Of a stretch of 56,671 nucleotides of DNA, positions 25,121-41,602 are shown one piece after another. Within the stretch, counting starts at the first letter, position 1; each line of letters starts with the position of its first letter. The DNA is taken from the NCBI GenBank assembly GCA_036803025.1, contig DAIRVC010000002.1, positions 1-56,671 of the forward strand, written 5' to 3'. This stretch comes from Anaerolineales bacterium. Its GTDB lineage: Bacteria > Chloroflexota > Anaerolineae > Anaerolineales > E44-bin32. The notes beneath the pieces were generated by a model, which did no database searches, was not told the origin of the DNA, and was given only the letters and a program-made list of their open reading frames with translations. Position numbers and translations under genes: made by a program.

Positions 25121-25162
25121 GGGGAAAACAAAGGCCGCGGGCGCTGGAGGGCGCCCGCGGCC
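25121..25162 (-). terminator. Rho-independent terminator
   Basis: Minus strand: GGCCGCGGGCGC-CCUCCA-GCGCCCGCGGCC (12-bp perfect stem), followed by UUUGUUUUCC. Confidence 0.7.
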
Positions 25163-25183
25163 GGTACGTCAAGCGACGACTGT

Positions 25184-25282: not shown

Positions 25283-25312
25283 TAGACACACCTCCCTTGA
25301 GATGACAGAGAC

Positions 25313-25341
25313 ACTCTACAAGAACCGTCGGCGTGAGTCAA
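25313..25341 (-). promoter_or_regulatory. Sigma70-like promoter TTGACT-N17-TAGAGT
   Basis: On the minus strand: -35 at 25341-25336 and -10 at 25318-25313. It lies 44 nt downstream of the hom stop. Confidence 0.55.
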
Positions 25342-25384
25342 GAGGCAATTTGCTGAGAACGGGCCGGGAGCACTGGATGGGTTC

Positions 25385-26401: not shown

Positions 26402-26432
26402 GGCTCGCCAACCTCCCAGGGTCACTGGATGG

Positions 26433-26461
26433 AGGCTACAAGAGGCGCGGGTCGCCGTCAA
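26433..26461 (-). promoter_or_regulatory. Promoter-like TTGACG-N17-TAGCCT for hom
   Basis: On the minus strand: -35 at 26461-26456 and -10 at 26438-26433. Confidence 0.4.
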
Positions 26462-26517
26462 GCCCCGCCAGGAGTGCCCCCCTGATTGTCGTTTTCGGCA
26501 GACCGATGGCAGACTCG

Positions 26518-26546
26518 TTGCCGTTCCGAACAAGGTGTGCTAGATT
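26518..26546 (+). promoter_or_regulatory. Promoter TTGCCG-N17-TAGATT with an extended TG, upstream of the Lrp gene
   Basis: TTGCCG 26518-26523, TGcTAGATT 26538-26546, then AGGAG and ATG at 26577. Confidence 0.5.
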
Positions 26547-26576
26547 CTGGTTGCCCCCGCACGTAGGAGCGAATCC

Positions 26577-27086
26577 ATGCCCCTGATCGAGTCGATCGAC
26601 CGGCAGATCGTCGACCTCCTGATGGAAGACGGACGCATGCCCTGCGCGCAGATCGCCCGCCGCATCGGTTTTGTGTCCGAGCGGACGGTCCGATACCGCC
26701 TGGACCGGCTGCGTCAGCGCGGGATCATGCGCGTGGTCGCCATCCCCGATCCCAAGGCCCTCGGCTTCAACGTGGTCGCCGATGTCTTCCTCCAAGTCGA
26801 GCCGACCGAGATCAATGCGGTCGCACACCGCATGACCGAATTCGAGTGCGTGAGCTACGTCAGCTGCTCGATGGGCGAGCGCGACGTCAGCATTCAAGTC
26901 GTCGGGCGGGACAACAACGAAGTGTATTCCTTCGTCACCGACACGGTGGCCAAGGTCCCCGGGGTGCGCAAGACCACGACGCTGATCGTCCCCGTCGTGC
27001 TGAAAGATGTCTACCAGTGGCGCATCCCGGCCGGCATTTGCCGGGAAGGCCCGCCCGCCGTCGGCCCCGGAGCGGGGCAGGCCTAG
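26577..27086 (+). CDS. Lrp/AsnC-family transcriptional regulator
   Basis: N-terminal HTH (IDRQIVDLLMEDGRMPCAQIARRIGFVSERTVRYRLDRL) plus a RAM/ASNC effector domain. Confidence 0.9.
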   Translation: MPLIESIDRQIVDLLMEDGRMPCAQIARRIGFVSERTVRYRLDRLRQRGIMRVVAIPDPKALGFNVVADVFLQVEPTEINAVAHRMTEFECVSYVSCSMGERDVSIQVVGRDNNEVYSFVTDTVAKVPGVRKTTTLIVPVVLKDVYQWRIPAGICREGPPAVGPGAGQA

Positions 27087-27227
27087 AGGCCGCCGACTCG
27101 AATAGATACTGTTGCACGCCCGACCCCCGGAGAGGATGCACCCCGTAGGAGGTGGGCCCGGACCGCCTGACCCCGAGAAGAAGGCGCAGCCGCTGACGAC
27201 CCTACGACCTGAGTGAGGAGGATCCAC

Positions 27228-28817
27228 ATGGCAATTGAGGACGCAGGATTGATTATCGGCGGGATCGTCGTGATCCTGATCGTCCGCCTGATCATCGGCT
27301 ACTGGGCCTCAACGAAAGTGCAGACGACCGTCGACTACGTCGTCGCCGGCCGCCGGCTGCCCTGGTGGATGGCCGCGCCGTCGATCATGGCCACCTGGTT
27401 CGCAGCCGAGACGTTGATGGGCTCAAGTTCGGAGGCTTACCAGTACGGTTTCGCCGGCGTGGTCTTCGATCCGTTCGGCGCCACGCTCTGCCTGATCATC
27501 GCCGGCCTGTTGATTGTGAAGATCTCACGCCGCGCCCAGTATCTGACCATCATGGACTTCTTCGAACGGCGCTTCGGGAAGACCATGTCCGTCATCGGCA
27601 CGATCACCCAGATCATCACCTACTTCGGCTGGACGGCGGCGCAAATCGTCGCCGGCGGGGCCATCCTGCAGGCGCTGCTGGGTTGGCCGATCCAGGCCGG
27701 GATGATCCTGGTCGCCACCGTGGTCACGCTGTACACGATCGCCGGGGGCCTGTGGGCCGATACGGCTCTGGACTTCATGCAAATGTTCCTCACCTGCGCC
27801 GGGTTGGTGATGATCATGGCGGGCATCATCGCCAGCGTCGGTGGTTTGAATGAGATGCTCAGCCTGGCCGGCGCGCAGGAAGTGACCCATTCTCACCCGT
27901 TCGCCATCTGGCCGACCTCGGAGGACGGCTACTACGGTTACTTCGGCATCAACGGCTGGTTCTACTACATCGCCGCCTGGCTGTCGCTCGGCCTGGGCGC
28001 CATCCCGGCCCAGGACTACCTGCAGCGCACCAATGCCGCCAAGGACGAATCGACGGCGGTCAAGTCGACCTTCATCGCCGCGGCGCTGTACATCTCCTTC
28101 GGTGTCCTATCTCCCCTCATTGGTGTGGTCGCATACGGCGCCCTCGGCCCGGCGCTCGAAGGAGCCGAGACCGAGTTCGTCTTGATCTCTATGGCGCATA
28201 AGTTCCTGCCGCCGATTCTGGTGGCGGTCTTTGTGGCGGTCCTGGCCTCGGCCCTGATGAGCACTTCGGACAGTTCGATGCTGGCCGGGGCGACCATGTT
28301 CACCGAGAACCTGGTCAAGCCCTTCAAGCCGGACATCTCCGACAAGGACCAGCTGAAGCTGACGCGCCTCGCCCTGCTGGTCAGCGGAGTGCTCAGTCTG
28401 GGGATCGCCATGTTCGCCTCGACCGTGTATGAACTGGCGGTCCTGGCCAACACGTCGATCCTGGTCGGTATGGCCGCGCCCTACGTTATCGGTATGTACT
28501 GGAAGAAGGCCAACCACACGGGCGCGCTGGCCTCCTTCTTGACCGGTGTGATTTCATGGGTCGTGCTCGGCGTTTACTACTACCGGACATTCGTCCTGCC
28601 GGTCGGTTACGACGGCGATGTTGGCGATGCGATCTGGGACGCCTTCTTCGACTCGACCATGGTCTCGGCCACTCCGGCTTTCATCCTGTCGGTGGTGGTC
28701 CTGATCGTGGTGTCCTTGCTGACGCAGAAGCAGGACCCGCCCAAGATCCTGACCGACATCAACGGCCAACCGGTGGACATGTCCAACCCGATTGGGAATC
28801 CGTTCGCAAAGAGCTAG
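27228..28817 (+). CDS. Sodium:solute symporter (SSS) family transporter
   Basis: Polytopic protein with SSS-like sequence throughout. The ATG at 27228 is preceded by GAGGAGG; the track start at 27213 lies within that RBS. Confidence 0.9.
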   Translation: MAIEDAGLIIGGIVVILIVRLIIGYWASTKVQTTVDYVVAGRRLPWWMAAPSIMATWFAAETLMGSSSEAYQYGFAGVVFDPFGATLCLIIAGLLIVKISRRAQYLTIMDFFERRFGKTMSVIGTITQIITYFGWTAAQIVAGGAILQALLGWPIQAGMILVATVVTLYTIAGGLWADTALDFMQMFLTCAGLVMIMAGIIASVGGLNEMLSLAGAQEVTHSHPFAIWPTSEDGYYGYFGINGWFYYIAAWLSLGLGAIPAQDYLQRTNAAKDESTAVKSTFIAAALYISFGVLSPLIGVVAYGALGPALEGAETEFVLISMAHKFLPPILVAVFVAVLASALMSTSDSSMLAGATMFTENLVKPFKPDISDKDQLKLTRLALLVSGVLSLGIAMFASTVYELAVLANTSILVGMAAPYVIGMYWKKANHTGALASFLTGVISWVVLGVYYYRTFVLPVGYDGDVGDAIWDAFFDSTMVSATPAFILSVVVLIVVSLLTQKQDPPKILTDINGQPVDMSNPIGNPFAKS

Positions 28818-28974
28818 CCGGCAAGGTCCTGGAAGACAACCTGCCGGGATTGCGACCCGACAAGCGGCTGGTCCGGCTGGGAGGCTCCCGCAGGCTTCCC
28901 CGCCGGCGAATTCGGCCGCCCGACCTGCCAATCCCAGCCGGTTGGCCGACCGCTGAGTCGGCAAGGAGTTACCG

Positions 28975-30183
28975 ATGAAGGTCTTGCTCGTCGGCACGGG
29001 CGGCGTCGGCGAATCCATCGCCGTCCTCGCCCAGGATCTGCCCTGGATCCAGAAGATGGTGTTGACCGACATCAACCCCAAGCGCCTGCGGGAAGTGAAA
29101 GCCAAGCTGCGCAACCCGGCCAAGTACCCGACCGCCCGCCTGGATGCCAGCAAGAAGACCGAGATCGTCGACCTGGCGGCCAAGTACAAGGTCGACCTGA
29201 TCATGAACGCCGTCGAACCGCTCTTCAATGAGAAGATCTTCGACGCCGCCTTCCAGTACGGCTGTGCCTATATGGACATGGCCATGACGCTCTCCTCCCC
29301 CCACCCCAAAGATCCATATCACCAATGCGGGGTGAAGCTGGGCGACTATCAATTCGAGCGGGCCGAGAAATGGCTGAAGAGGGGCCGTTTCGCTCTGCTG
29401 GGAATGGGCGTCGAGCCCGGCATGGCCGATGTCTTCGCCAAATACGCTGAGAAGCACCTGTTCGACGAGATTGACGAGATCAACATCCGCGACGGCGCCA
29501 ACCTGGAAGTGCGCGGTTATGAGTTCGCCCCCAACTTCTCCATCTGGACGACGATCGAGGAGTGCCTGAACCCTCCCATCATCTGGGAGAAGGAACGCGG
29601 CTGGTATACGACCGAACCGTTCTCCGAGCCGGAGACGTTCGAGTTCCCGGAGGGCATCGGCCGGCAGGGCTGCGTCAACGTTGAACACGAAGAAGTCCTG
29701 CTGGTGCCGCGCTGGGTGAAATGCATGCGTGTAACCTTCAAGTACGGCCTGGGCGACGAGTTCATCCGCATCTTGAAGACCATCAAGCTGCTGGGGATGG
29801 ACAACAAGGAGCCCATCAACGTCGGCGGCGTAAAGGTCGCCCCGCGCGACGTCGTGGCCGCCTGCCTGCCCGATCCGGCACATCTGGGCGACAAGATGTT
29901 TGGCAAGACCTGCGCCGGCACGTGGGTCAAGGGCAAGAAGGGCGGCCGGCCGCGCCAGGTGTACCTGTACCAGGTGGCCGACAATGAGACCTGCATGAAG
30001 AAGTACGGCGTGCAGGCCGTGGTCTGGCAGACCGCCGTCAATCCGGTCATCGCCATGGAGTTGATCGAGCGGGGGATCTGGAAGGGACCGGGCGTTTTCG
30101 GCCCGGAGGCATTCGACCCCGATCCGTTTATCGAGCGCATGGCCGGCTACGATTTCCCTTACAAGTTGAAGGAGATGTCCTGA
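28975..30183 (+). CDS. Saccharopine-dehydrogenase-fold NAD(P) oxidoreductase (relatives: lysine 6-DH, carboxynorspermidine DH, homospermidine synthase)
   Basis: Rossmann motif MKVLLVGTGGVGESIA and a C-terminal Sacchrp_dh-like domain. RBS AAGGAG. Confidence 0.88.
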   Translation: MKVLLVGTGGVGESIAVLAQDLPWIQKMVLTDINPKRLREVKAKLRNPAKYPTARLDASKKTEIVDLAAKYKVDLIMNAVEPLFNEKIFDAAFQYGCAYMDMAMTLSSPHPKDPYHQCGVKLGDYQFERAEKWLKRGRFALLGMGVEPGMADVFAKYAEKHLFDEIDEINIRDGANLEVRGYEFAPNFSIWTTIEECLNPPIIWEKERGWYTTEPFSEPETFEFPEGIGRQGCVNVEHEEVLLVPRWVKCMRVTFKYGLGDEFIRILKTIKLLGMDNKEPINVGGVKVAPRDVVAACLPDPAHLGDKMFGKTCAGTWVKGKKGGRPRQVYLYQVADNETCMKKYGVQAVVWQTAVNPVIAMELIERGIWKGPGVFGPEAFDPDPFIERMAGYDFPYKLKEMS

Positions 30184-30210
30184 GCGACGTCCGCCACACG
30201 GGAGTCACTG

Positions 30211-31569
30211 ATGCCACCATCCTTCGACGACGCGCAGCGCTATTGCGAGCGCTGGCTGGATATCATCCAGCGGCCGCAGCTCTCGGATGAAGAAGGCCGG
30301 GAGATCATCGAGGAGGCCAAGGCCAACTTCGGCGAGCACTTCAACCGGGGCTGGCTCGACTACCGCAAATCGGTGACCGAAGCCGGCGACTGGGCGGCGA
30401 CCGAATGGACCGGCCGGGGAGCCGTTTTCCAGGACGTCCTCGGACGCGAGTACATCGACTGCCTGGGCGCGTTCGGGATGATGTCCCACGGCTGGGCGCA
30501 TCCCGAGATCGTCGCCGCGGTTCAGGCGCAGCTGCGGCGGACGCCCATGCCGACGCAGGAGCTGATCGATCCGCTGCGCGGCGCCCTGGCGCGGCTGATG
30601 GCCCAGATCACGCCCGGCGACCTGCAGTACAGCTTCTTCTGCGCCAGCGGCACCGAGGCCGTCGAAGGCGCCATCAAGCTGGCCAAGATGTACACCGGCC
30701 GGCCGGGGTTCATCGCCGCCCTCAACGGTTTCCACGGCAAGACGATGGGCTCGCTGAGCATGATCGGAAAGTCCGATTACCGCGAGCCGGTCGGGCTGCT
30801 GTACGGCGGCCCGGTCTACCACGTGCCCTTCGGGGATGCTGAAGCCGTCGAACGGCAGCTGGAAGGCTGCCGCCACACCGGGGTCGGCATCGCCGGGGTG
30901 CTGATGGAGCCCATCCAGGGCGAGGCCGGCGCGATCGTGCCGCCGGATGACTTCTGGCCGCGGCTGCGTCTGGCGACCCGCCGTCACGGCGCGCTGCTCA
31001 TCGCCGACGAGGTCCAGACCGGCTTGGGCCGCACCGGCAGGATGTGGGGCGTCGACCACTGGGAGACGGTGCCGGACATCCTGGCGGTGGCCAAGTCGCT
31101 GGGCGGCGGCGTGATGCCCGTCAGCGCCTTCTGCTCGACGGCCGAAATCTGGCAGTGTATGATGGCTCCCAACCCGTTCATCCATACCACCACCACCGGT
31201 GGTGGACCGCTGGCCTGCAGCGCGGCGATCGCCTCGATCCACGTGACGCTGCGCGATCGGCTCTGGGAGCAGGCCGCCCAGAAGGGGGAGTACCTGATCC
31301 CCCGCCTGCAGAAGCTGGCCGAACGCTTCCCGCAGATCTACCGGCAGATTACCGGCCGCGGGCTGCTGATCGGCCAGCACTTCCACACGCCGGAGATCGG
31401 CTACCGGGTGGCGGCCGGTCTGTTCAAGCGCGGCGTGCTCGTTTCTGGGACGCTGACCAACGCGCACACCGTCCGCATCGAACCGCCGCTGGTCATCAGC
31501 TATGAGCAGCTCGACGCGGTCCTGAATCGACTGGAGGACACGCTGGTCGAGGTCGGCCGCGCGCTGTAA
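30211..31569 (+). CDS. Class-III PLP aminotransferase, putrescine/diamine aminotransferase-like
   Basis: Motifs DEVQTGLGRTG and AKSLGGG (PLP Lys). The N-terminal region resembles PatA/YgjG. Confidence 0.9.
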   Translation: MPPSFDDAQRYCERWLDIIQRPQLSDEEGREIIEEAKANFGEHFNRGWLDYRKSVTEAGDWAATEWTGRGAVFQDVLGREYIDCLGAFGMMSHGWAHPEIVAAVQAQLRRTPMPTQELIDPLRGALARLMAQITPGDLQYSFFCASGTEAVEGAIKLAKMYTGRPGFIAALNGFHGKTMGSLSMIGKSDYREPVGLLYGGPVYHVPFGDAEAVERQLEGCRHTGVGIAGVLMEPIQGEAGAIVPPDDFWPRLRLATRRHGALLIADEVQTGLGRTGRMWGVDHWETVPDILAVAKSLGGGVMPVSAFCSTAEIWQCMMAPNPFIHTTTTGGGPLACSAAIASIHVTLRDRLWEQAAQKGEYLIPRLQKLAERFPQIYRQITGRGLLIGQHFHTPEIGYRVAAGLFKRGVLVSGTLTNAHTVRIEPPLVISYEQLDAVLNRLEDTLVEVGRAL

Positions 31570-31598
31570 GCGCGCCTCTCGCCGCACAGGAGGACTCG

Positions 31599-32921
31599 GT
31601 GCCAGACAAGCCGCCCAGATCGCAGCGCAGCCCAGAGGAGATCGTCCGCCTCAACCGCAAGCACACCTTCTTCTCCTGGTCGGTCCAGAAGTCGGTCGAT
31701 CCGATCCCGGTGGCCGGCGGCCGGGGGGTCTACTACTGGGACGCCGATGACCGACGCTACCTGGACTTCTCCTCGCAGCTGATGAGCCTGAACATCGGCT
31801 ACCAGCACCCCAAGGTCGTGGCTGCGATCCAGGAGCAGGCCGCCCGCCTGTGCGCCGCGCACCCGGCCGCGGCCCACGAACCGAAGGGCGTCCTGGCCGA
31901 GCGTATTGCCGAGGTCACCCCCGGGGACCTGAACAAGGTCTTCTTCACCCTGGGCGGCGCCGACGCGAACGAGAACGCCGTCAAGTTCGCCCGGCAGTAC
32001 ACCGGCCGGCACAAGATCCTGGCTCGCTACGTTTCCTACCACGGCGCCACGTATGGGGCTGTCACCCTGAGCGGCGACTACCGCCGTCCGCCGGTCGAGC
32101 CCGGCATCCCCGGTGTGATCCACTGCTTCGACCCCTACTGCTACCGCTGCGTGTTCGGCCATACGCCGGACACGTGCCATCGCGAGTGCATCAGTCACAT
32201 CGAGCAGATGATCGAATACGAGAACCCCGACACGATCGCGGCCCTGATCATGGAGGGCGTGACCGGCTCGAACGGCATCCTCGTTCCCCCGGACGACTAC
32301 TGGCCGCGCCTGCGCGAGATCACGCGCAAGCACGGCATCCTGCTCATCTCCGACGAGGTCATGACCGGCTTCGGCCGCACCGGCGAGTGGTTCGCCGTCG
32401 ATCACTGGAAAGTCGTGCCCGACATCATGACCATCGCCAAAGGGCTGACCTCGGGCTACCTGCCGCTGGGGGCGGTAGTGGTCTCCGACGCCATCGCCCG
32501 GCACTTCGAGGACAAGATGCTCTACATGGGGCTGACCTACTACGGCCATCCCCTTTCGTGCGCGGCCGGCATCGCCACGCTGCAGGTGTACAAGGACGAA
32601 GATCTGATCGGCAACAGCCGGCGCCTGGGCGCCGTCCTGGCCGACGAGCTATCCCGCATGCAAGCCCGGCTGCCGCTGATCGGGGACGTACGCGCACTGG
32701 GACTGTTCTCGGCCGTCGAGCTGGTGCGTGATCGCGGCACGCGCCAGCCGCTCGAGGCCGCCAGCATGGCCCGCATCAAGGGCCGGCTGCTGGCCGAAGG
32801 TCTGACGACCTTCGTCAACAAGAACATGGTCTTCGCCTGCCCCCCGCTGGTCATCTCCCGCGAGGAACTGCTGACCGGGTTGGGGATCATCGAGCGGGCC
32901 ATTGCCGCCGAGGCTGGGTAG
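31599..32921 (+). CDS. Class-III PLP aminotransferase, omega-amino acid:pyruvate type
   Basis: GTG start with AGGAGG 6 nt upstream. Motifs DEVMTGFGRTG and AKGLTSGYLPLG. Confidence 0.9.
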   Translation: MPDKPPRSQRSPEEIVRLNRKHTFFSWSVQKSVDPIPVAGGRGVYYWDADDRRYLDFSSQLMSLNIGYQHPKVVAAIQEQAARLCAAHPAAAHEPKGVLAERIAEVTPGDLNKVFFTLGGADANENAVKFARQYTGRHKILARYVSYHGATYGAVTLSGDYRRPPVEPGIPGVIHCFDPYCYRCVFGHTPDTCHRECISHIEQMIEYENPDTIAALIMEGVTGSNGILVPPDDYWPRLREITRKHGILLISDEVMTGFGRTGEWFAVDHWKVVPDIMTIAKGLTSGYLPLGAVVVSDAIARHFEDKMLYMGLTYYGHPLSCAAGIATLQVYKDEDLIGNSRRLGAVLADELSRMQARLPLIGDVRALGLFSAVELVRDRGTRQPLEAASMARIKGRLLAEGLTTFVNKNMVFACPPLVISREELLTGLGIIERAIAAEAG

Positions 32922-33002
32922 AGCCTTCCTCCAACTTCCGAAGTGGCCGCGGCTTCGGAAGTCGGAGGGGATAGGGGACTTCAAACCGGAGAGCCTGTTC
33001 CC

Positions 33003-34325
33003 ATGAACCGAGATCCCGATCTGACCCGGACACGCGCCCTGTTCTCGCGCGCCCAGGCCGTGATGCCCTGGGGTGTGAGCTCGAACTTCCGCTACAGCGG
33101 CGAGGACACGCCCGTCATCTCGCGCGGCCAGGGGGCCCACGTATGGGACGCCGACGGGAACCGCTACATCGACTACCGCCTGGCCTTCGGGCCGATCATC
33201 CTGGGCCACGCCGACCCGCGCGTCAACCGGCGGGTGCACGAAGCCATCGACGGTGGGACGCTCTTCGCCCACACCCATGTTCAGGAGATCGAGCTGGCCG
33301 AGCGGATCGTGCGCATGTGCCCGGGCGTCGAGATGGTGCGCTTCGCCAACTCGGGCACAGAAGCGACGATGCACGCCCTGCGCATCGCCCGTGCCTATAC
33401 CGGCCGCGAAGCGGTCGTCAAGTTCGAAGGCGGCTACCACGGTTTCCACGACTACCTGCTCTGGTCGACGGCCTACACAGCCTACGGCTCCATTGGCTCG
33501 CGCCGCAGCCCGATCCCGGTCTGCAATTCCTCCGGCATCCCGGCCCGCCTGCGCGATCTGATCCTGGTCCTGCCCTTCAACGATTTTGAGATGCTCGATC
33601 AGACCGTCCGCGCGCGCTGGGGCGAGATCGCCGCCATCATCGTCGAGCCGATCGCCGCCAACATGACCAGCATCCTGCCGCGCCCCGGCTGGCTGGAGCT
33701 GATCCGGCGCCTGTGCGACGAGCACGGGATCGTCATGATCATGGACGAGGTCAAGACCGGCTTCCGCATCGCGCGCGGCGGCGCGGCCGAGTACTTCGGC
33801 GTCAAGGGCGACCTGATGACCTACGCCAAATCACTGGCCAACGGCTACCCGCTGGCGGCCATCGGCGGCTCGCGCCGCGTCATGAGCGTCATCGAGCCCG
33901 GGCGAATGGCCCACGGCGGAACCTACTGCGCCAACGGCCCGGGCGTTGCTGCCGGCCTGGCAACGCTGGAGGTCCTCGAGACCACGGATGCACTCGAAAC
34001 GGTTTCAGCCCGCGGGCGGCGCCTGATGCAGGGCATCGACGACGTCCTCACGGAGGCCGGATTCGAACACGCCATGACCGGCGTCCCGTCGATGTTCTCG
34101 TTCGTGCTCGGCCTGGCCAGCGCCCCGGGCGAGTATCGCGACCTGATCCCGATGGATGTCCGCCTGTATGAGCACCTCCAGGAAGCCATGCGCCGGCGGG
34201 GCGTGGCTTACGAACACGACGCCAAGGAGCCGCTCTTCCTGTGCGAGGCGCATTCCGAAGCCGATATCGACGAGACCCTCACGGCGCTGGCCGAATCGGT
34301 CAAGGAGGCCAAGAGGCAGGCATGA
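33003..34325 (+). CDS. Class-III PLP enzyme, glutamate-1-semialdehyde 2,1-aminomutase-like
   Basis: Motifs [28 protein letters not shown] and [13 protein letters not shown] at 33003. Confidence 0.9.
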
Positions 34326-35800
34326 GCCCGACAGCGGAGGTCCTCAACTACATCAACGGGGAATGGCGCCCGCCGTCGGCCGCCGAGTGCCTGGACGTCC
34401 TCAACCCGGCGACGGCCGAGGTTCTCGGGCATGTGCCGCTCGGGGCGACGGCCGAGGTGGCCCAGGCGGCCGCGGCGGCTGCCCAGGCCTTCCCTGATTG
34501 GCGCCGCACGCCGGCCGTCGAGCGCGTGCAGTACCTCTTCCGCCTGAAGCAGCTGCTCGAGGCGTCGTTCGAGGACCTCTCCCGCAGCATCACGCTCGAG
34601 TGCGGCAAGACGTTGGATGAGTCGCGGGCCGAGATGCGACGGGCGATCGAGAACGTCGAGATCGCCTGCGGAATCCCGCAGCTGATGCAGGGCTACAACT
34701 CGGAGGATATCGCTTCGGGCATCGACGAGACGATGATCCGCCAGCCGGTCGGCGTCAGCGCCATCATCTGCCCGTTCAACTTCCCGGGCATGATCCCCTT
34801 CTGGTTCATGCCCTACGCGCTGGCTTGCGGCAACCCGGTCATCGTCAAGCCGTCGGAAAGGGTGCCGCTGACGATGCAGGCGGTCTTCCGGCAGTTGGAG
34901 CAGTGCCGCTTCCCGCCGGGCGTCGTCAACCTGGTCAACGGCGCCCGCCAGGCGGTCGACGCTCTTCTCGATCACCCAGCGGTGCGGGCGGTCAGCTTCG
35001 TCGGATCGACCCCGGTCGCCCGGCACGTCTACGCCCGCGCCGCAGCGAGCGGCAAGCGCGCCCAATGCCAGGGCGGGGCCAAGAACGCGGTCGTGGTCAT
35101 GCCCGACGCCGAGATGGACATGGCCACCCGGATCATTGCCGACAGCGCCTTCGGCTGCGCCGGGCAGCGCTGCCTGGCTGTCTCGCTGGTGATCACGGTG
35201 GCCGATGCCCGGCCGATCTTCAACGAGTTGATCTGTGACGCGGCCGCCACCCGCGTGGTTGGCAGCGGACTGGAGGCCGGGGTCCAGATGGGGCCGCTGA
35301 TCAGCGCCGCCAGCAAGGCCCGCACCGAGTCGTTGATCGGCCGCGGCCTGGAAGAAGGCGCCCAATTGGCGGTCGACGGCCGCGCGGCGCGCATCTCCGG
35401 CTACGAGAACGGCTTCTTCGTCCGGCCGACGGTCCTGCTCGACCTGCCGCCGCAGGGCGAGGTCGCTCAGACCGAGATCTTTGGTCCCGTGCTTGGCATG
35501 ATCCACGTCGATACGCTCGACGAGGCGCTGGCCTTGATCAACGCTGCCCAGGTCGGCAATCAAGCCAGCCTCTTCACCGCCAGCGGGACGGCAGCGCGCC
35601 GCTTCCGCTACGAAGCCCAGGCCGGCAACATCGGCATCAATATCGGCGTGGCGGCGCCAATGGCCTTCTTCCCCTTCAGCGGCTGGAAGGAGAGCTTCTT
35701 CGGCGACCTGCACGGCCAGGGCCTGGATGCGGTCGAGTTCTTCACGCAGAAGAAAGTCGTCATCGAGCGTTGGCCGAAGGAGTGGGCGCGCAAGTTCTGA
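34322..35800 (+). CDS. mmsA: CoA-acylating (methyl)malonate-semialdehyde dehydrogenase
   Basis: The ATG overlaps the preceding stop (ATGA). Catalytic motif [10 protein letters not shown]. The C-terminal …[16 protein letters not shown]… is typical of MMSDH. Confidence 0.92.
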
Positions 35801-35830
35801 CCGCCGGGCCAGCGGCGGGCGGGGAAAGGA

Positions 35831-37102
35831 ATGGGGATGCCTGCAGCCGATCTCTCGCACCTCTCGCCGGTCTGGAACCGCAGCTGGACGCTCTTGGTCG
35901 AGCGCGGTGAAGGTCCGTACCTGATCGACGCCGACGGCCGGCGCTACCTGGATTTCACCTGCGGCATCGGCGTGACCAACACCGGGCATGCGCATCCGCG
36001 CGTGGTCAAAGCCATTCAGGAGCAGGCCGCCCGGCTGCTGCACGGGCAGGCCAACATCGTCGTCCATACGCCGATGCTGGATCTGGCCGGCGAGCTGCTC
36101 GGCGTCGTTCCCGCGCCGCTGGACACATTCTTCTTCACCAACTCGGGCGCCGAGGCGGTCGAGGGCGCGGTCAAGCTGGCCCGGCACGCCACGCGCCGGC
36201 CGAACGTGGTCGTCTTTCAGGGCTCCTTTCACGGCCGCACGAACCTGACCATGGCCATGACCACATCGAAGACGAACTACAGGGCCGGGTACCAACCGCT
36301 GGCGGCCGGGGTATTCGTCGCCCCCTACCCCTACGCCTACCGCTACGGATGGGATGAAAGCAGCACGCTGGCCTTCTGTTTGCGCGAGCTGAAGCACCTG
36401 TTCAAGTCCCAGACCGCCCCGCAGGAGACGGCCGCCATCGTGGTCGAGCCGGTCCTGGGGGAAGGCGGGTATGTGGTCCCGCCGGATGGGTTTTTGCCGG
36501 CGCTGCGCGAGTTGTGCGATGATATGGGTATTCTGCTCATCGCCGACGAAGTCCAGTCCGGCTTCGGGCGCACGGGCAGATGGTTCGCGGTCGACCACCT
36601 TGGCGTGGTGCCCGACCTGCTCATCATGGCCAAGGGCATCGCCTCCGGGCTGCCGCTGGCGGGTCTGGCCGCCCGGCGCGAGTTGATGGAGGAATGGACA
36701 CCCGGATCACACGGCGGCACTTACGGCGGGAACGTCATTGCCTGCGCCGCGGCGGCAGAGACGATCAGGGTCATGCGCGATGAGCGGCTGATCGAGAACG
36801 CGCACGCGATGGGACAAGTGTTGATGGCCGGCCTGCGGCAGCTGCAGAAGGCTCATCCCGAGATCGGAGAGGTGCGCGGCCGCGGCCTGATGATCGCCAG
36901 CGAGTTCACCGATCCGGACGGCGCAGCGGGGACGCAGCGGGCGAAGGCCGTCGTCCAGGCCGCCTTCCAGCGCGGCCTGATGCTGCTGACCTGCGGCTCC
37001 TACGACAACGTCGTCCGTTGGATCCCGCCGCTGATTGTGAACGCCGCCCAGATCGAAGAGGGACTGGAGACGTTCGAACAGGCGCTCGTCCAGTCCCGCT
37101 GA
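35831..37102 (+). CDS. gabT: Class-III PLP aminotransferase, 4-aminobutyrate aminotransferase-like
   Basis: Motifs DEVQSGFGRTG, AKGIASGLPL and SHGGTYGGN. The alternative ATG at 35837 has better RBS spacing. Confidence 0.9.
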   Translation: MGMPAADLSHLSPVWNRSWTLLVERGEGPYLIDADGRRYLDFTCGIGVTNTGHAHPRVVKAIQEQAARLLHGQANIVVHTPMLDLAGELLGVVPAPLDTFFFTNSGAEAVEGAVKLARHATRRPNVVVFQGSFHGRTNLTMAMTTSKTNYRAGYQPLAAGVFVAPYPYAYRYGWDESSTLAFCLRELKHLFKSQTAPQETAAIVVEPVLGEGGYVVPPDGFLPALRELCDDMGILLIADEVQSGFGRTGRWFAVDHLGVVPDLLIMAKGIASGLPLAGLAARRELMEEWTPGSHGGTYGGNVIACAAAAETIRVMRDERLIENAHAMGQVLMAGLRQLQKAHPEIGEVRGRGLMIASEFTDPDGAAGTQRAKAVVQAAFQRGLMLLTCGSYDNVVRWIPPLIVNAAQIEEGLETFEQALVQSR

Positions 37103-37121
37103 GAGGGGCGAGGAGGCAGCC

Positions 37122-39017
37122 ATGACGGAAGGGCTCACCCGGCGCATTCTGCATTTCGACCTGGAAGCCGGATCGCTCAGCATCGAGACGCCATCCGAGT
37201 CGTTCTACCGCCGCTACATGGGCGGCTCGGCCATGGGCCTGTACTACATCCTCAAAGACATGAAGCCCGGCACCGACGCGTTCTCCCCGGGCAATGTGTT
37301 GACCCTGATGGTCAGCCTCCTGACCGGGGCGCCGATATCCGGTCAAAGCCGACTGTGCGCCAACGCGCGTTCGCCGCTGACCGACGGAATCGGCGATGCC
37401 CAGGCCGGCGGCTTCTTCCCGGCCGAGATGCGCTTTGCCGGTTTCGACGGCCTGGTCGTGCGCGGGCGCGCCGCGCGGCCGGTCTACCTCTGGCTGCACA
37501 ACGGGCAGGCGGAGATGCGCCCGGCCGAACACCTGTGGGGAAAGACCACCTCGCAAGTGGATGATCTGATCAAGGCGGAACTCAAGGATGACAAGGTCGA
37601 GATCGCCCAGTGCGGGCCGGCCGGGGAGAAGCTCGTGCGCCTGGCGGCGATCATCAACATGGCCAACCGCGCCAACGGACGCACCGGCCTGGGCGCGGTC
37701 ATGGGATCCAAGAATCTGAAGGCGGTCGTCGTGCGCGGCGAGAGCAAGCGCCTGCCGTGGGCCGACCCCCGCCGCATCAACGAGATGGCGCGCCAGGGCG
37801 CCTCCGAGATCGAGACGAATGCCGACATGCTCGGCCTGCAGAAGCTGGGCACCGCCGGCGTGGTCGCCTTCCAGCACACCATCGGCAGCCTGCCGACGTT
37901 CAACTATGCCCAGGGCCAGTTCGAGGCCTTCGAGGCCATCTCCGGCGAGCGCATGAGCGACACGATCCTGAAGGACAACGACACCTGCTATGCCTGCAGC
38001 GTGCGCTGCAAGCGGGTGGTGGAGACTCAATTCGGCGATCGCCCGGTGGCGCGCCGGCACGGCGGGCCTGAGTACGAGACGATCGCCACCTTCGGATCGT
38101 ACTGCGGCGTCGGTGATCTGGACGCCATCGCGCTGGCCAACCAGCTGTGCAACGAATACGGGCTCGACACGATCGGAACCGGCGCCACCGTCGCCTGGGC
38201 AATGGAGTGCTTCGCACAAGGGATCCTTTCGGAGCAGGAAATCGGGTTCCCGGCCGCGTTCGGCGACGCCTCCGCCATGATTCGCCTGACCGAGATGCTG
38301 GCGCGCCGCGAGGGCTTCGGCGACACACTGGCCGAAGGCTCGCGCCGCGCTGCCCAGAGACTGGGCAAGGGACACGAACTGCTCATCACCGCCAAAGGCG
38401 CAGAAGCCCCGGCGCACATGCCGCAGGCCAAGCGCTCCCTGGGCTTGATCTACGCCGTGAATCCCTTCGGCGCCGACCACCAGTCCTCCGAACATGACCC
38501 GATGATCGAAGACGGCGCCGGGGAGCTGTACATGAAGCGCCTGGCCCGTCTCGGATTCGACCACACGCTCCCGCAGAATTCATTGGCGGCCGACAAGGTG
38601 CGATACGCCTTGAAGACCCAGCAGTTCTACTCTTTCCTGGACACCGCCGCGCTGTGCCAGTTCGTGTGGGGGCCGGCGTGGACCCTCTACGGACCGGATG
38701 AGACCGTCGCCTTCGTGCGGGCGGCGACAGGCTGGGAAGACTTCAGCCTGGAAGAGCTGCTCGAGGTGGGCGAACGACGTCTGAACATGCTGCGCTTGTT
38801 CAACGCCCGCGAGGGTCTCGACCGCAAGGCCGACGGTCTGCCGAAGAAGTTCTTCCGGCCGCTCGGCGGCGGCGGCCCGACAGCCGGGGTCAGTCTGGTC
38901 GAGGCGGAGATCGAATCGGCCAAGGACGAGTACTACCGACTGGCGGGCTGGGACACCCGGACCGGCAACCCCACCAGCGACACCCTGGAGCGGCTGGGAT
39001 TGGGGTGGGCCGTCTGA
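37122..39017 (+). CDS. aor: Aldehyde:ferredoxin oxidoreductase (tungsten/pterin AOR family)
   Basis: AOR N-domain plus the 4Fe-4S ligand motif DTCYACSVRCKR. RBS GAGGAGG. Confidence 0.93.
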   Translation: MTEGLTRRILHFDLEAGSLSIETPSESFYRRYMGGSAMGLYYILKDMKPGTDAFSPGNVLTLMVSLLTGAPISGQSRLCANARSPLTDGIGDAQAGGFFPAEMRFAGFDGLVVRGRAARPVYLWLHNGQAEMRPAEHLWGKTTSQVDDLIKAELKDDKVEIAQCGPAGEKLVRLAAIINMANRANGRTGLGAVMGSKNLKAVVVRGESKRLPWADPRRINEMARQGASEIETNADMLGLQKLGTAGVVAFQHTIGSLPTFNYAQGQFEAFEAISGERMSDTILKDNDTCYACSVRCKRVVETQFGDRPVARRHGGPEYETIATFGSYCGVGDLDAIALANQLCNEYGLDTIGTGATVAWAMECFAQGILSEQEIGFPAAFGDASAMIRLTEMLARREGFGDTLAEGSRRAAQRLGKGHELLITAKGAEAPAHMPQAKRSLGLIYAVNPFGADHQSSEHDPMIEDGAGELYMKRLARLGFDHTLPQNSLAADKVRYALKTQQFYSFLDTAALCQFVWGPAWTLYGPDETVAFVRAATGWEDFSLEELLEVGERRLNMLRLFNAREGLDRKADGLPKKFFRPLGGGGPTAGVSLVEAEIESAKDEYYRLAGWDTRTGNPTSDTLERLGLGWAV

Positions 39018-39058
39018 GCTCGACGGGAAACCCTTGGTCGGCGGAGGCCACAAACGGG

Positions 39059-40483
39059 ATGGAGCACCGACTCTTCATCAATGGGCAGTGGGTGGGTGAA
39101 GGGCCCTTGCTGCAAGTCACCAACAAGTACACCGGTGAGACGTTCGCGGCGCTGCCGCAGGCTCGGCGCGAAGACGTCGACGCGGCACTGGCGGCCGCGG
39201 CCGAGGCTGCGCCGGTCATGGCCGAGCTTCCCGCCCATCGCCGCTACGAGATCCTCTCCCGGGCCGCAGCGCTGATCGCCGAGCGGCGCGACCTGTTCGC
39301 CAGGACCATCGCCACGGAAGCCGGCAAGGCCCTGAAGTTCGCTCGCATCGAGGTTGACCGCGCGATCGGGACCTTCACCTTCGCGGCGGAGGAAGCCAAG
39401 CGCCTGCACGGCGAGACCATACCCCTCGACGCCATCCCCTCGGGTGAGGGCTACTTCGGCTACTATGTGCGCCGCCCGGTCGGTGTCATTGTCGGCATCT
39501 CGCCGTTCAACTTCCCGCTCAACCTGGTGGCTCACAAGGTCGCCCCGGCACTGGCCGCCGGCAATACGATGGTGCTCAAACCAGCCAGTTGGACTCCGGT
39601 CACCGCGGTCCTGCTCTGCCAGGTCCTGGACGAGGCCGGCCTGCCCCCGGGAGCCCTGAACCTGATCGTCGGCCCGGGCGGGACCGTCGGTGAATGGCTG
39701 GTCACCGACGCACGCGTGGCCAAGGTCACCCTCACCGGCAGCGTCCCGGTCGGCCGTCAGATACTGGCGATGGCCGGCATCAAGAAGGTCACTCTGGAGC
39801 TGGGCAACACCGGGCCGGTGATCGTCGCCCCGGACGCTGATCTGGAGTACGCCGCCCGGCGCTGTGCTGTGGGCGCCTACTACAACTCCGGGCAGGTGTG
39901 CATCTCCGTCCAGCGCATCTACATCGAACGGCCGGCCTACGCGGCCTTCACCGACGAGTTCGTCAAAGCCAGTCGGGCGATGGTCGTCGGCGACCCGCTC
40001 GACGAGCGCGTCGATGTCGGCCCGATGATCGACGAGAAGGAGGCCCGCCGTATCGAGGGCTGGGTGGGCGAGGCGCGTGACGCCGGCGCGCGGGTGCTCA
40101 CCGGCGGCTCGCGCCAGGGCTCCGTCTACTCGCCGACCGTCCTGGCGGAGGTCACTTCGGCGATGAAGGTCGTCGCCGAGGAAGCCTTCGCACCCGTCGC
40201 CTCGGTCATCGCGTGCGAAGACTTCGACGAGGCGCTGCGCCTGGCCGATGACACGACCTACGGGCTCCAGGTGTCTGTGTTCACCCGCGACCTGCAGCGC
40301 GTCTTCAGCGCTGTCCGGCGCCTGAATTTCGGCGGCGTCATTGTCAACGACTCACCCGCCTTCCGCGCCGACCACATGCCGTATGGCGGCAACCGACAGA
40401 GCGGCCTGGGTCGCGAGGGTGTGCGCTTCGCCATGGAGGATATGACCAACATCCAGATGGTGGCCATCCGCACCGCCTGGTAG
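39059..40483 (+). CDS. NAD(P)+-dependent aldehyde dehydrogenase
   Basis: Motifs VTLELGNTGP and YYNSGQVCISVQR (catalytic Cys). The ATG at 39059 has GGAGG upstream. Confidence 0.92.
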   Translation: MEHRLFINGQWVGEGPLLQVTNKYTGETFAALPQARREDVDAALAAAAEAAPVMAELPAHRRYEILSRAAALIAERRDLFARTIATEAGKALKFARIEVDRAIGTFTFAAEEAKRLHGETIPLDAIPSGEGYFGYYVRRPVGVIVGISPFNFPLNLVAHKVAPALAAGNTMVLKPASWTPVTAVLLCQVLDEAGLPPGALNLIVGPGGTVGEWLVTDARVAKVTLTGSVPVGRQILAMAGIKKVTLELGNTGPVIVAPDADLEYAARRCAVGAYYNSGQVCISVQRIYIERPAYAAFTDEFVKASRAMVVGDPLDERVDVGPMIDEKEARRIEGWVGEARDAGARVLTGGSRQGSVYSPTVLAEVTSAMKVVAEEAFAPVASVIACEDFDEALRLADDTTYGLQVSVFTRDLQRVFSAVRRLNFGGVIVNDSPAFRADHMPYGGNRQSGLGREGVRFAMEDMTNIQMVAIRTAW

Positions 40484-40499
40484 GCGCGCCGCGATCGCC

Positions 40500-40739
40500 A
40501 TGATCGTTCACGTCCGACTCCATACCACGCTGCGCAGGGCCACGCCCGAGGGCCTCCTCGACCGCCTCGACCTGGAGCTCGATCCGGGTGCCACGGTGGC
40601 CGAGGCGCTGGCGCGCCTCGAAATCCTGCCCCGCGGCGGTTTCGTGGTGATGGCGGTCAACGGGAAGCTGGCCAAGGCGGAGCAGGTCCTGAACGACGGC
40701 GACGAGCTCCGGCTTGTGCCGTCCGTGTCGGGGGGCTAG
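40500..40739 (+). CDS. MoaD/ThiS-family ubiquitin-fold protein (C-terminal GG)
   Basis: 79 aa ending …LVPSVSGG. Adjacent to AOR-type genes, an association known from other organisms. Confidence 0.8.
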   Translation: MIVHVRLHTTLRRATPEGLLDRLDLELDPGATVAEALARLEILPRGGFVVMAVNGKLAKAEQVLNDGDELRLVPSVSGG

Positions 40740-40842
40740 TCCCATCGGGCTTCATTGCGAGGAGCGGCCAAGCTCCCCCTCTCGCGAGGAGACGGTCTCG
40801 CTCCGGCCTGAAGGCCGGGGCGCGCAATGACATTGGGGGGAA

Positions 40843-41571
40843 TCAAACCAACGGCCAGGGATACGGACGGCCGGGGCCGGGCAGCGGGAAGCGTTTGTGC
40901 TCGAGGAGTGCCTCGGCCCGCCCGCGCAGCGCCTCGATCTCCTCTAGCGTGAGAAGCGCCTCCAACCGACCGAGCAGCGGGCTCTTCGGCGCGAGCCGCT
41001 CTCGGAAGCGGCGCAACACCGCGATCAGCTCAGCCGGCACAGGCTGCCCGGCGAAATCCCAGACGACCGTCCGCAGTTTGGGCTCGACGTGGAAGCACAC
41101 CCCATGGTCGATTAACCATAGGTGCCCCTGCGCGTCCAGCAGCACGTGCCCGCTCTTGCGATCGGCGTTGTTGACCAGGGCGTCGAACAGGGCCACCGGG
41201 CGCAGCCGGTCTTTCTCATCATCCGTGAAGGTGAAGTAGTGACGCTCCGGGTCGGCGGCCACATACAGCTGCAGCGACCCCGGCCCCAACGGGCCATCGG
41301 CGCGCAGCACCGTCGGCGGGACAAGGTCCCACCCCAGTGCCTGGCTGGTCAGGTAGGCGGCCACCTCACGCTGAGCCAGCGTCCCTTCGGGGAAATCCCA
41401 CAGCGGCCTCTCGCCTCGGGCCGGCTTGTACACTGCAGAAAGCTCCCCGTCCGGGACTTGCAGCCGGGCAAGGAAGGTGTAGTTCGAGCCCCACAGGAAT
41501 TGCCCCTCGACCTGCAGGGGGGCCGTCGCCAGGAGGTCCTCGATCTCATCGGGGTCGGAAATGGGGATCAC
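40843..41571 (-). CDS. SCO1664-family PI3/PI4-kinase-like protein
   Basis: Catalytic-loop-like NNADRKSGHVLL and DFG-like LIDHG. I chose the GTG at 41571 because the track ATG at 41697 would overlap DUF3090 by 95 nt. The start remains uncertain. Confidence 0.8.
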   Translation of the reverse strand: MIPISDPDEIEDLLATAPLQVEGQFLWGSNYTFLARLQVPDGELSAVYKPARGERPLWDFPEGTLAQREVAAYLTSQALGWDLVPPTVLRADGPLGPGSLQLYVAADPERHYFTFTDDEKDRLRPVALFDALVNNADRKSGHVLLDAQGHLWLIDHGVCFHVEPKLRTVVWDFAGQPVPAELIAVLRRFRERLAPKSPLLGRLEALLTLEEIEALRGRAEALLEHKRFPLPGPGRPYPWPLV

Positions 41572-41602
41572 CGCTCTGAGGGCCGACCGGAGGCGAGTCT
41601 GG

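Follow-up and report, generated by a model that had tools for sequence, protein, structure and literature searches.

A candidate operon for oxygen-independent polyamine use in an Anaerolineales bacterium, containing a diverged member of the carboxyspermidine dehydrogenase family

The gene cluster and its enzymes

The stretch from 1 to 56,671 of contig DAIRVC010000002.1 of the Anaerolineales assembly GCA_036803025.1, referred to here as the window (68% G+C), carries an unbroken run of eleven genes on the forward strand, extending from 26577 to 40739 (Table 1). The products are an Lrp/AsnC-family regulator, a sodium:solute symporter (SSS), a dehydrogenase with the saccharopine dehydrogenase fold (the SDH-like enzyme), four class III aminotransferases (AT1 to AT4), a CoA-acylating (methyl)malonate-semialdehyde dehydrogenase (MmsA), an aldehyde:ferredoxin oxidoreductase (AOR), an NAD(P)-dependent aldehyde dehydrogenase (ALDH) and a small ThiS/MoaD-like protein. 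The likely joint function of these genes, the use of an imported polyamine in an oxygen-independent manner, is the subject of this analysis.

Open reading frames (ORFs) were called with guidance from G+C content at third codon positions (GC3), and families were assigned through Pfam and NCBIfam profile scans of the window proteins. Start codons, refined by their Shine-Dalgarno context, agree with independent JGI gene calls on identical contigs; the refined starts are those of the SSS, AT3, MmsA and ALDH genes, the mechanical ORF starts having been 27213 for SSS and 32943 for AT3. The SSS start (ATG at 27228) is preceded by GAGGAGG and is also the one in the JGI call. In gene order, the gaps are 141, 157, 27, 29, 81, −4, 30, 19, 41 and 16 nt. 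An original prediction, made from the sequence and without database searches, had described eleven co-directional genes with gaps of 16 to 157 nt and one ATGA overlap, and had given each gene a family. The refined calls reproduced this layout and placed the sole overlap at AT3/MmsA (ATG at 34322, TGA at 34323-34325) and not at AOR/ALDH, and the profile scans agreed with all eleven family assignments.

We found no terminator-like site in the intergenic gaps, and promoter-like matches were at background level, so that internal terminators and promoters were dropped from consideration. Riboswitches and other RNA elements were likewise dropped as occupants of the 141- and 157-nt gaps because an Rfam E-value scan of 25000-42000, which includes both gaps, returned no match. 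The same gene order, with an SDH-like protein that is 100% identical, occurs in four separate JGI metagenomes. The earlier label of an "island" was not borne out: housekeeping genes flank the cluster, and the set looks to have been passed on vertically within the lineage. The SSS and SDH-like genes (window 26001-30000) differ in composition from their surroundings, with a G+C content of 0.62-0.65 (~0.68 for the rest of the window) and a first-codon-position GC of 0.56-0.59 (0.65-0.69 in the other cluster genes). The transporter/SDH pair may have been transferred laterally.

Table 1. Coordinates of the cluster genes and of other features of the window
Feature	Position	Strand	Family or match
Lrp/AsnC-family transcriptional regulator	26577-27086	+	HTH_AsnC-type and AsnC_trans_reg
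Sodium:solute symporter (SSS family)	27228-28817	+	PF00474, 183 bits; TIGR00813, 200 bits (cutoff 184)
CASDH-family (SDH-like) dehydrogenase	28975-30183	+	Sacchrp_dh_NADP and Sacchrp_dh_C
AT1, PatA/YgjG-like diamine (putrescine) aminotransferase	30211-31569	+	Aminotran_3
AT2, omega-amine/omega-amino-acid aminotransferase, PRK06062 subfamily	31599-32921	+	Aminotran_3
AT3, amine aminotransferase of glutamate-1-semialdehyde aminomutase (GSAM) fold, not HemL	33003-34325	+	Aminotran_3
MmsA, CoA-acylating (methyl)malonate-semialdehyde dehydrogenase	34322-35800	+	TIGR01722
AT4, GabT/PuuE-like 4-aminobutyrate aminotransferase	35831-37102	+	Aminotran_3
AOR, aldehyde:ferredoxin oxidoreductase	37122-39017	+	AFOR_N and AFOR_C
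NAD(P)-dependent ALDH	39059-40483	+	Aldedh, PF00171
ThiS/MoaD-like small protein, C-terminal Gly-Gly	40500-40739	+	PF02597
Homoserine dehydrogenase (338 aa in the JGI call)	25385-26533	-	
CdhD-family corrinoid Fe-S protein subunit	151-1125		
CdhD-family corrinoid Fe-S protein subunit	1144-2487		
RACo reductive activator	2919-4841		
336-aa ORF without annotation	4838-5848		
CooC/CbiA-like ATPase	5794-6612		
Pterin-binding methyltransferase	6630-7553		
1062-aa ORF	11684-14872	+	no Pfam match
355-aa protein, C-terminal GNAT domain	22849-23916	-	
402-aa protein, C-terminal GNAT domain	24013-25221	-	

Pairwise identity among the four aminotransferases is only 26-39%, and every one carries a DEVxxG motif and a pyridoxal phosphate-lysine motif of its own, in keeping with the earlier statement that they are four different enzymes and not recent duplicates. 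Comparison with the PDB also confirmed that one is PatA-like (YgjG) and another GabT-like (GabT/PuuE). The matches leave no doubt that E. coli PatA is the closest relative of AT1: its top PDB match, E. coli YgjG (4UOX), reaches 430 bits and the next family 240 bits, and although its scores lie below the PatA equivalog cutoffs (573 bits against 612 for NF008570 and 462 against 659 for TIGR03372), the PatA model is a near miss and the next NCBIfam family, ArgD, reaches 286 bits. Its DEVxxG motif reads DEVQTG (residue 266) and its lysine motif AKSLGGG (about residue 294). AT4, on the same kind of evidence, is closest to GabT/PuuE. E. coli GabT (342 bits) and PuuE (337 bits) head its PDB matches, the top nine of which are all 4-aminobutyrate (GABA) aminotransferases; it scored 427 bits with TIGR00700 (cutoff 506.65) and 537 bits with its best model, the PRK08117 subfamily (cutoff 574).

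AT2 passed NF004718 (541 bits; cutoff 472). It had been proposed to be of the omega-amino acid (beta-alanine):pyruvate type, but its nearest solved relative is a taurine:2-oxoglutarate aminotransferase (6JIX; 358 bits) and no named beta-alanine:pyruvate enzyme. AT3, described as GSAM-like, does have the GSAM fold, and its PDB relatives are GSAMs (~299 bits) together with beta-amino-acid and amine transaminases, enzymes that act on non-alpha amines. A HemL function was rejected because AT3 lies below the hemL equivalog cutoff (TIGR00713, 390.8 bits against 527.3) and has no heme biosynthesis context. AT3 passed the model for GntE, the guanitoxin enzyme (NF041362, 571 bits; cutoff 525), but this role was also rejected: none of the ten neighboring genes belongs to the hydroxylase, cyclase, kinase or methyltransferase families, and we take the name to reflect an over-broad model. 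Automated pipelines would probably call AT3 "guanitoxin biosynthesis transaminase GntE," which would mislead here.

MmsA passed TIGR01722 (509.9 bits; cutoff 448.5) and has the catalytic-Cys motif GQRC. The AOR protein matches PF02730 (AFOR_N) and PF01314 (AFOR_C), retains the Fe-S cysteines C289xxC292xxxC296 and C512, and has as its top PDB match the Pyrococcus furiosus AOR (1AOR; 388 bits), with Aromatoleum AorABC (8C0Z) at 329 bits; these matches place it in the AOR subfamily of aldehyde:ferredoxin oxidoreductases. The ALDH (PF00171, 524 bits; motif GQVC) had lactaldehyde dehydrogenase as its best NCBIfam match (519 bits; cutoff 650) and is a candidate succinate-semialdehyde or amino-aldehyde dehydrogenase. 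The MoaD-like protein (PF02597, 44 bits) ends in SGG and is probably linked to the pterin cofactor of AOR.

Recurrence of the gene set and its importers

We scanned the SDH-like protein against 185,579 species genomes, obtaining 80 loci (numbered with the prefix L), and mapped the window proteins onto them by tblastn. In 31 close loci the SDH-like protein is at least 67% identical to that of the window, and partner genes were counted in these within 10 kb. The close loci come mostly from metagenome-assembled genomes (MAGs) of Anaerolineae and other Chloroflexota, with some from Actinomycetota. Orthologs of Lrp (49-74% identity, heading the cluster) and of AT1 were each present in 17 of the 31 close loci, AT2 in 15, AT3 and AT4 in 12 each, AOR in 11 and MmsA in 5; the MmsA orthologs of L001, L003, L020, L022, L057 and L067 are 66-81% identical to the window protein. 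About 15 Chloroflexota MAGs carry the core set (Lrp, transporter, SDH-like enzyme, AT1, AT2, AT3, MmsA, AT4 and AOR) with the gene order changed, which argues for selection for clustering and not for inherited synteny. The original prediction had counted the ALDH and the MoaD-like protein as members of the set; both are present in the window, but they appear to be local additions and not conserved parts. No ALDH ortholog above 46% identity was found in the 80 related loci, making the ALDH specific to the version of the cluster in this genome, and no MoaD-like ortholog was found in the close loci.

Certain pairs recur as neighbors. AT1 directly follows the SDH-like gene in 8 loci and AOR directly follows it in 5, while AOR/AT4 are adjacent in 9 loci, AT2/AT3 in 11 and AT2-MmsA in 4. 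These counts define three sub-modules that fit a division of labor between a C4 and a C3 branch, as set out below. The association of AOR with SDH-like genes extends to the Firmicutes loci L031, L060, L068 and L070. In L060, L068 and L070 (MAGs of Syntrophomonadaceae and other Bacillota), a compact arrangement runs from a divergent sigma-54 activator through genes for a 4Fe-4S ferredoxin, AOR and SSS to that for the SDH-like enzyme (identities to the window proteins of 32-33% for AOR, 33% for SSS and 54-55% for the SDH-like protein), which once more connects the enzyme with an AOR that consumes aldehydes. In L031 the order is PatA-like aminotransferase, ferredoxin, AOR, MoaD-like protein (33% identical to that of the window and directly after AOR) and SDH-like enzyme, followed by a Pot-type ABC system.

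The SDH-like protein is unusually conserved across phyla, reaching 74-77% identity in MAGs of Actinomycetota. Its clade is also common, public metagenomes containing at least 120 protein clusters with 76% or higher identity to the window protein. L066, a 3.5-kb contig of an Anaerovoracaceae MAG, has an SDH-like gene whose product is 54-55% identical; this family includes the putrescine-fermenting Anaerovorax odorimutans. Two variants of the cluster were also seen. In L021 and L026, from low-GC Anaerolineaceae, the cluster lacks AOR and has, at about 12.7-14.2 kb of these loci, a SauS/EutE-like CoA-acylating ALDH after AT4 (546 bits; cutoff 600), which would turn succinate semialdehyde into succinyl-CoA and not succinate. 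The two closest sister loci with PotABCD-type transporters (L004, 15852-20616; L007, from 14588 onward) have four added genes after the cluster. One encodes a corrinoid protein resembling MtgC and another a second SDH-like paralog (58-59% identical), while the other two encode methyltransferases of the MttB superfamily, which at 324-327 bits stay under the trimethylamine cutoff of 525. The added genes hint at a link of the SDH-like family to the demethylation of methylated amines.

The slot between the Lrp and SDH-like genes is filled in three ways. An SSS symporter occupies it in the window and in L005, L013 and L023 (orthologs 75-85% identical), an APC permease in L001, L002, L003, L020, L021, L026 and L067, and a four-gene PotABCD-type ABC system in L004, L007, L022, L025 and L057. 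The PotA of the sister loci passed the polyamine-ABC model TIGR01187 (384 bits; cutoff 356), whereas the sister-locus binding protein reached only 222 bits with the PotD equivalog (cutoff 582). Even so, the L004 binding protein has 22 PDB relatives, every one of them a polyamine-binding protein (PotD, PotF, SpuD/E). We compared these proteins with E. coli PotD at thirteen spermidine-contact positions, which we take to be those of Sugiyama et al. (1996). Twelve of the 13 are kept in the binding proteins of L004, L007, L008, L022, L025 and L057, and 11 of the 13 in that of L011. Those kept in the first six proteins include the equivalents of Glu36, Glu171 and Asp257, which in PotD contact the three nitrogens of spermidine (PMC4096761). 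Thus, the PotD-like binding proteins of Chloroflexota look spermidine-specific by residue comparison. SDH-like genes adjoin Pot-type ABC systems in Desulfobacterales, Clostridia and Thermoanaerobacteraceae, too.

The SDH-like enzyme and the proposed pathway

The SDH-like protein matches PF03435 and PF16653, the domains of the saccharopine dehydrogenase fold. Its only PDB relatives are members of the carboxyspermidine dehydrogenase (CASDH) family, namely, 4INA and 4RL6 (206 bits), 8DEB (168 bits) and 8H4Z (126 bits), and it aligns with the solved CASDHs over its full length (residues 2-401); no saccharopine reductase or dehydrogenase in the PDB reached an E value of ≤1e-5. It has been argued that 4INA and 4RL6 are mis-annotated CASDHs and that a triad, His228-Glu229-Glu230, sets CASDHs apart from saccharopine reductase and lysine 6-dehydrogenase; Glu188 and Glu229 of the CASDH known as BfCASDH are thought to position aspartate semialdehyde (ASA) (PMC10413350). 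The triad and the Glu188 equivalent are kept in all 81 members of the SDH-like clade (VEHEEV and IEE in the window protein). We therefore rejected a lysine/saccharopine role, there being no such PDB relative and the CASDH-specific triad being present. The original prediction of a saccharopine dehydrogenase-fold oxidoreductase acting on lysine or on (nor)spermidine-type bonds thus stands as regards the fold and, through CASDH, the second family, but not as regards a saccharopine or lysine dehydrogenase.

The cofactor site is a different matter. BfCASDH is strictly NADPH-dependent, with Ser34, Arg35 (at the adenine) and Thr36 surrounding the 2'-phosphate (PMC10413350). 4INA, 8DEB and 8H4Z carry Ser-Arg-Thr/Ser at this NADP-binding motif, whereas the window protein has Asp32-Ile33-Asn34 and so lacks the feature of NADP(H) specificity found in CASDHs. 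In 79 of the 81 clade members, Asp takes the place of Ser34 and a hydrophobic residue comes next. For Rossmann folds in general, an Asp here points to NAD+, the usual cofactor of catabolic dehydrogenases, and on that rule the SDH-like clade is predicted to be NAD+-dependent. Two further replacements flank Glu188, Arg187 to Glu in 78 of 81 members and Glu183 to Trp in 77 of 81, while Ser144 of CASDH is Ala or Ser in the clade. The charge reversal at Arg187, near the aldehyde site, would suit a substrate without the carboxylate of ASA, although this is speculation. Paralogs less than 45% identical to the window protein (n = 3; L061, L070 and L077) mostly have the clade motifs and not the CASDH motifs, and the window protein scored 203.7 bits with the carboxynorspermidine dehydrogenase (CANSDH) equivalog NF043000, whose cutoff is 800.

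Pairing with a carboxy(nor)spermidine decarboxylase gene would be expected of a biosynthetic CASDH. No carboxyspermidine decarboxylase is among the annotated window genes, and in a Pfam census of 140 immediate neighbors of clade members Orn_DAP_Arg_deC is not one of the 25 most frequent families; transport components dominate, followed by class III aminotransferases and AOR. A regular-expression scan for decarboxylase signatures near SDH-like genes also gave no match, but with the PROSITE-type patterns used this is a weak negative. We concluded from these comparisons that the SDH-like enzyme is a diverged member of the CASDH family and not an ortholog of the biosynthetic enzyme.

Taken together, these results lead us to lean toward the reading that the eleven genes form one Lrp-regulated operon for the oxygen-independent use of an imported polyamine, probably spermidine or an analogue (norspermidine or homospermidine), into which free putrescine could also feed. 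We favor a polyamine because of the importer slot, the affinities of AT1 and AT4 and the CASDH-family membership of the SDH-like enzyme, which we regard as three independent lines. The gene families, conservation of the set, sub-modules, polyamine importers of the sister loci and CASDH signatures were computed; all substrates, and the direction of the SDH-like reaction, are what we infer. In the proposed pathway, the Lrp/AsnC protein would be the pathway-specific regulator and the SSS symporter would import the amine. The SDH-like enzyme would then run the CASDH reaction backwards on a decarboxylated substrate (spermidine + NAD+ + H2O → putrescine + 3-aminopropanal + NADH). This regiochemistry is suggested by homology because CASDH joins the aldehyde carbon of ASA to a nitrogen of putrescine, and it would explain the tight SDH-AT1 and SDH-AOR adjacencies; the alternative, as with SpdH, would be cleavage to 1,3-diaminopropane and 4-aminobutanal.

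In the C4 branch, AT1 would convert putrescine to 4-aminobutanal, AOR (reducing ferredoxin) or ALDH would oxidize this to GABA, AT4 would yield succinate semialdehyde, and ALDH or AOR would form succinate. In the C3 branch, AOR or ALDH would convert 3-aminopropanal to beta-alanine, AT2 would produce malonate semialdehyde and MmsA would release acetyl-CoA and CO2; AT3, always a neighbor of AT2, may act on a further terminal amine such as 1,3-diaminopropane. The strongly exergonic oxidation of aldehydes by AOR would pull the unfavorable amine dehydrogenation and clear reactive amino-aldehydes, and the reduced ferredoxin would suit an organism with genes for CO dehydrogenase/acetyl-CoA synthase (CODH/ACS). 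The downstream steps have characterized aerobic counterparts in E. coli or P. aeruginosa, including that from 3-aminopropanal through beta-alanine to acetyl-CoA (PMC9397018), and a route from 1,3-diaminopropane through 3-aminopropanal to beta-alanine has been demonstrated (PMC9213253). The original prediction of anaerobic (poly)amine or omega-amino-acid catabolism to acetyl-CoA and a dicarboxylate, with AOR feeding ferredoxin, is thus supported by the conserved set, the Pot importers, the CASDH family and the AT1 and AT4 comparisons. Among the substrates that it had left open (a triamine, a diamine or a lysine-derived amine), a polyamine of the triamine type is now favored, and we found nothing specific for a lysine-derived one.

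We went further, and more tentatively, in proposing what the SDH-like clade itself might be. It is possible, although we would stop somewhat short of calling it probable, that the clade is a new enzyme, a polyamine (spermidine) dehydrogenase that uses NAD+, arose from within the biosynthetic CASDH family and is not homologous to SpdH or to polyamine oxidases. Together with a tungsten AOR, such an enzyme might allow strict anaerobes to convert spermidine without oxygen to acetyl-CoA, succinate, 3 NH3 and reduced ferredoxin, conceivably in Anaerolineae and, as variants, in Clostridia, Syntrophomonadaceae and Desulfobacterales.

Several points weigh against the polyamine reading. The model is purely computational, and thermodynamics disfavor the oxidation of a secondary amine with NAD+. 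The comparison with PotD was made on proteins of sister loci, the window itself having an SSS importer, and to our knowledge no bacterial polyamine substrate has been established for SSS symporters. The nearest solved relative of AT2 acts on taurine, the nearest named model of AT3 is GntE, and AT1, AT4 and ALDH all fall below their equivalog cutoffs. MmsA was detected in a minority of the close loci (5 to 7 of 31), and many distant SDH-like homologs, in Microbacteriaceae, are for the most part solitary, having neither an aminotransferase nor an AOR gene close by. The NAD+ preference follows from a single Asp rule, and the retention of the ASA-positioning residues Glu188 and Glu229 is compatible with a carboxylated (ASA-derived) substrate or with the synthetic direction. 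Finally, a homoserine dehydrogenase gene is divergent from the Lrp gene, a pairing kept in L004, L005 and L007; ASA is a substrate of homoserine dehydrogenase and the co-substrate of CASDH, and the adjacency may be meaningful or merely inherited synteny.

The strongest rival, which we still consider unlikely, is an operon limited to the breakdown, by transamination, of diamines (putrescine or cadaverine) and omega-amino acids (GABA or 5-aminovalerate, and beta-alanine), the SDH-like protein not cleaving polyamines but being a primary-amine dehydrogenase of the lysine-6-dehydrogenase type or some other imine/amine enzyme. The PatA-like and GabT-like enzymes, MmsA and the aldehyde-oxidizing enzymes would suffice for such routes, and many loci have SSS or APC transporters, which typically carry amino acids. 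However, no member of the set is as constant as the SDH-like gene, which is tied to the transporter, AT1 and AOR; its product has only CASDHs as PDB relatives and carries the His-Glu-Glu triad reported to be absent from saccharopine reductase and lysine 6-dehydrogenase (PMC10413350). Furthermore, the PotD-like proteins have lost none of the three acidic residues in contact with the spermidine nitrogens.

A biosynthetic or salvage role seems distinctly improbable. Here a divergent CASDH/CANSDH would condense an imported diamine with ASA to form a carboxy-polyamine for a decarboxylase encoded elsewhere, with the aminotransferases as unrelated neighbors or suppliers of diamine. Membership in the CASDH family with catalytic and ASA-positioning residues kept would fit this, as would the divergent homoserine dehydrogenase of ASA metabolism, kept in three loci, and the minimal modules of L011, L054 and L078, in which a Pot transporter and an SDH-like gene stand alone. 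Against it, the CANSDH equivalog is missed widely (204 bits against 800), Asp replaces the NADP-binding Ser-Arg-Thr, a carboxyspermidine decarboxylase is neither in the window nor recurrent among the neighbors, and the linkage to degradative AOR, MmsA and GabT is repeated from locus to locus.

Slightly less probable again is another class of amine, such as organosulfonates (taurine or homotaurine), aminophosphonates or guanidino amines. The taurine enzyme nearest to AT2, the GntE (guanidino-amine transaminase) model passed by AT3, sub-threshold matches of ALDH to phosphonoacetaldehyde and sulfoacetaldehyde dehydrogenases and the SauS-like acylating aldehyde dehydrogenase after AT4 in L021 and L026 all point that way, but every one of these matches except GntE is below cutoff, and no such amine accounts at once for the PatA and GabT enzymes, for MmsA and the CASDH-like enzyme and for the PotD-type importers. 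The cluster contains no desulfonating enzyme (Xsc or IslA), phosphonatase or guanidino-hydrolase, and the taurine/sulfonate reading in particular was set aside for want of desulfonation genes. Least probable of all is a chance gathering of independent amine-metabolism genes in several transcription units, for although the 141- and 157-nt gaps could hold internal promoters and the ALDH and MoaD-like genes are not conserved, the same eight families recur, shuffled, across many genomes, the eleven genes are co-directional with gaps of ≤81 nt after the SDH-like gene and without terminator-like sites, and the arrangement is identical in four metagenomes.

Elsewhere in the window, an accessory CODH/ACS cluster lies at 151-7553, bearing out the earlier remark that the organism carries CODH/ACS components. 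The tandem GNAT acetyltransferase-domain proteins have N-terminal regions of ~200 amino acids without a Pfam match and are adjoined by genes for a HAD hydrolase and an EamA transporter. The 1062-aa ORF has a GC1 of 0.78, but an overlapping opposite-strand ORF of 344 aa has an equally good GC3, so that either strand may be the coding one.

Comparison with known systems

Polyamines are abundant in all biomass and necromass, and Anaerolineae are dominant but poorly understood members of digesters and sediments; the clade could explain part of their niche. The cluster offers a testable candidate, with a CASDH-family enzyme that has a switched cofactor site, an AOR that would link amino-aldehyde oxidation to ferredoxin and a full downstream set. 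It also contains traps for annotation, as the labels "saccharopine dehydrogenase," "glutamate-1-semialdehyde aminomutase" and "GntE" would each be a misnomer in this cluster.

The closest parallel for the C4 branch is the putrescine aminotransferase pathway of E. coli (PatA/YgjG, PatD, GabT and GabD), which runs from putrescine through 4-aminobutanal, GABA and succinate semialdehyde to succinate (PMC9397018). The window has the PatA-like, GabT/PuuE-like and aldehyde-oxidizing steps in common with it, but a ferredoxin-dependent AOR would replace or supplement the amino-aldehyde dehydrogenase, the regulator is of the Lrp type, and the operon adds a CASDH-like enzyme, two further aminotransferases and MmsA. 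For the initial cleavage, the logic resembles that of the P. aeruginosa SpdH pathway with KauB, in which a secondary amine is cleaved into C4 and C3 parts, the aldehydes are oxidized, and beta-alanine is converted through malonate semialdehyde to acetyl-CoA (PMC9397018). SpdH itself is, from the title of reference 216 in PMC9397018, a heme-containing enzyme of the polyamine oxidase type. We found no amine-oxidase or FAD domain, as expected of such a flavo-heme enzyme, in the eleven cluster proteins; in contrast to SpdH, the candidate cleaving enzyme of the window is a nonhomologous, NAD(P)-dependent member of the CASDH family, and the aldehyde step could reduce ferredoxin.

With the CASDHs and CANSDHs (BfCASDH 8DEB, 4INA and 4RL6), the window enzyme shares the fold, the Pfam domains, the triad, Glu188 and, presumably, imine chemistry between an aldehyde and a polyamine nitrogen. 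It differs in being only distantly similar (168-206 bits to these three), in having no adjacent decarboxylase and in having importers, aminotransferases and AOR as neighbors. Saccharopine dehydrogenase (L-glutamate-forming) has the same Pfam fold (PF03435 and PF16653) and provides the precedent for this fold working catabolically with NAD+ to release an aldehyde and an amine from a secondary amine. Unlike that system, the window cluster has no lysine-ketoglutarate reductase partner, and the triad is found only on the CASDH-like side (PMC10413350).

The AOR resembles the tungsten AORs (1AOR and 8C0Z) in sequence, in its Fe-S cysteine motif and in having a MoaD-like gene nearby. It differs from Aromatoleum AorABC in that the window cluster has no electron-transfer subunits of the AorA or AorC type, while the Firmicutes relatives have an adjoining 4Fe-4S ferredoxin gene. 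We know of no amino-aldehyde that is an established AOR substrate.

In the literature that we searched, we found no description of a catabolic CASDH-like enzyme, of this cluster or of anaerobic spermidine degradation by Anaerolineae, nor any route by which a strict anaerobe cleaves the secondary amine of spermidine. That the cluster contains a new enzyme activity is accordingly a serious possibility, if one to which we give rather less than even weight. Characterized bacterial polyamine catabolism comes from aerobes and facultative organisms and proceeds by gamma-glutamylation, transamination, oxidases, SpdH or acetylation, with triamines handled by oxidase-type enzymes (PMC9397018). The cluster described here would differ from these known routes in that a whole polyamine pathway appears to be packed into one Lrp-controlled operon in an anaerobic member of the Chloroflexota.

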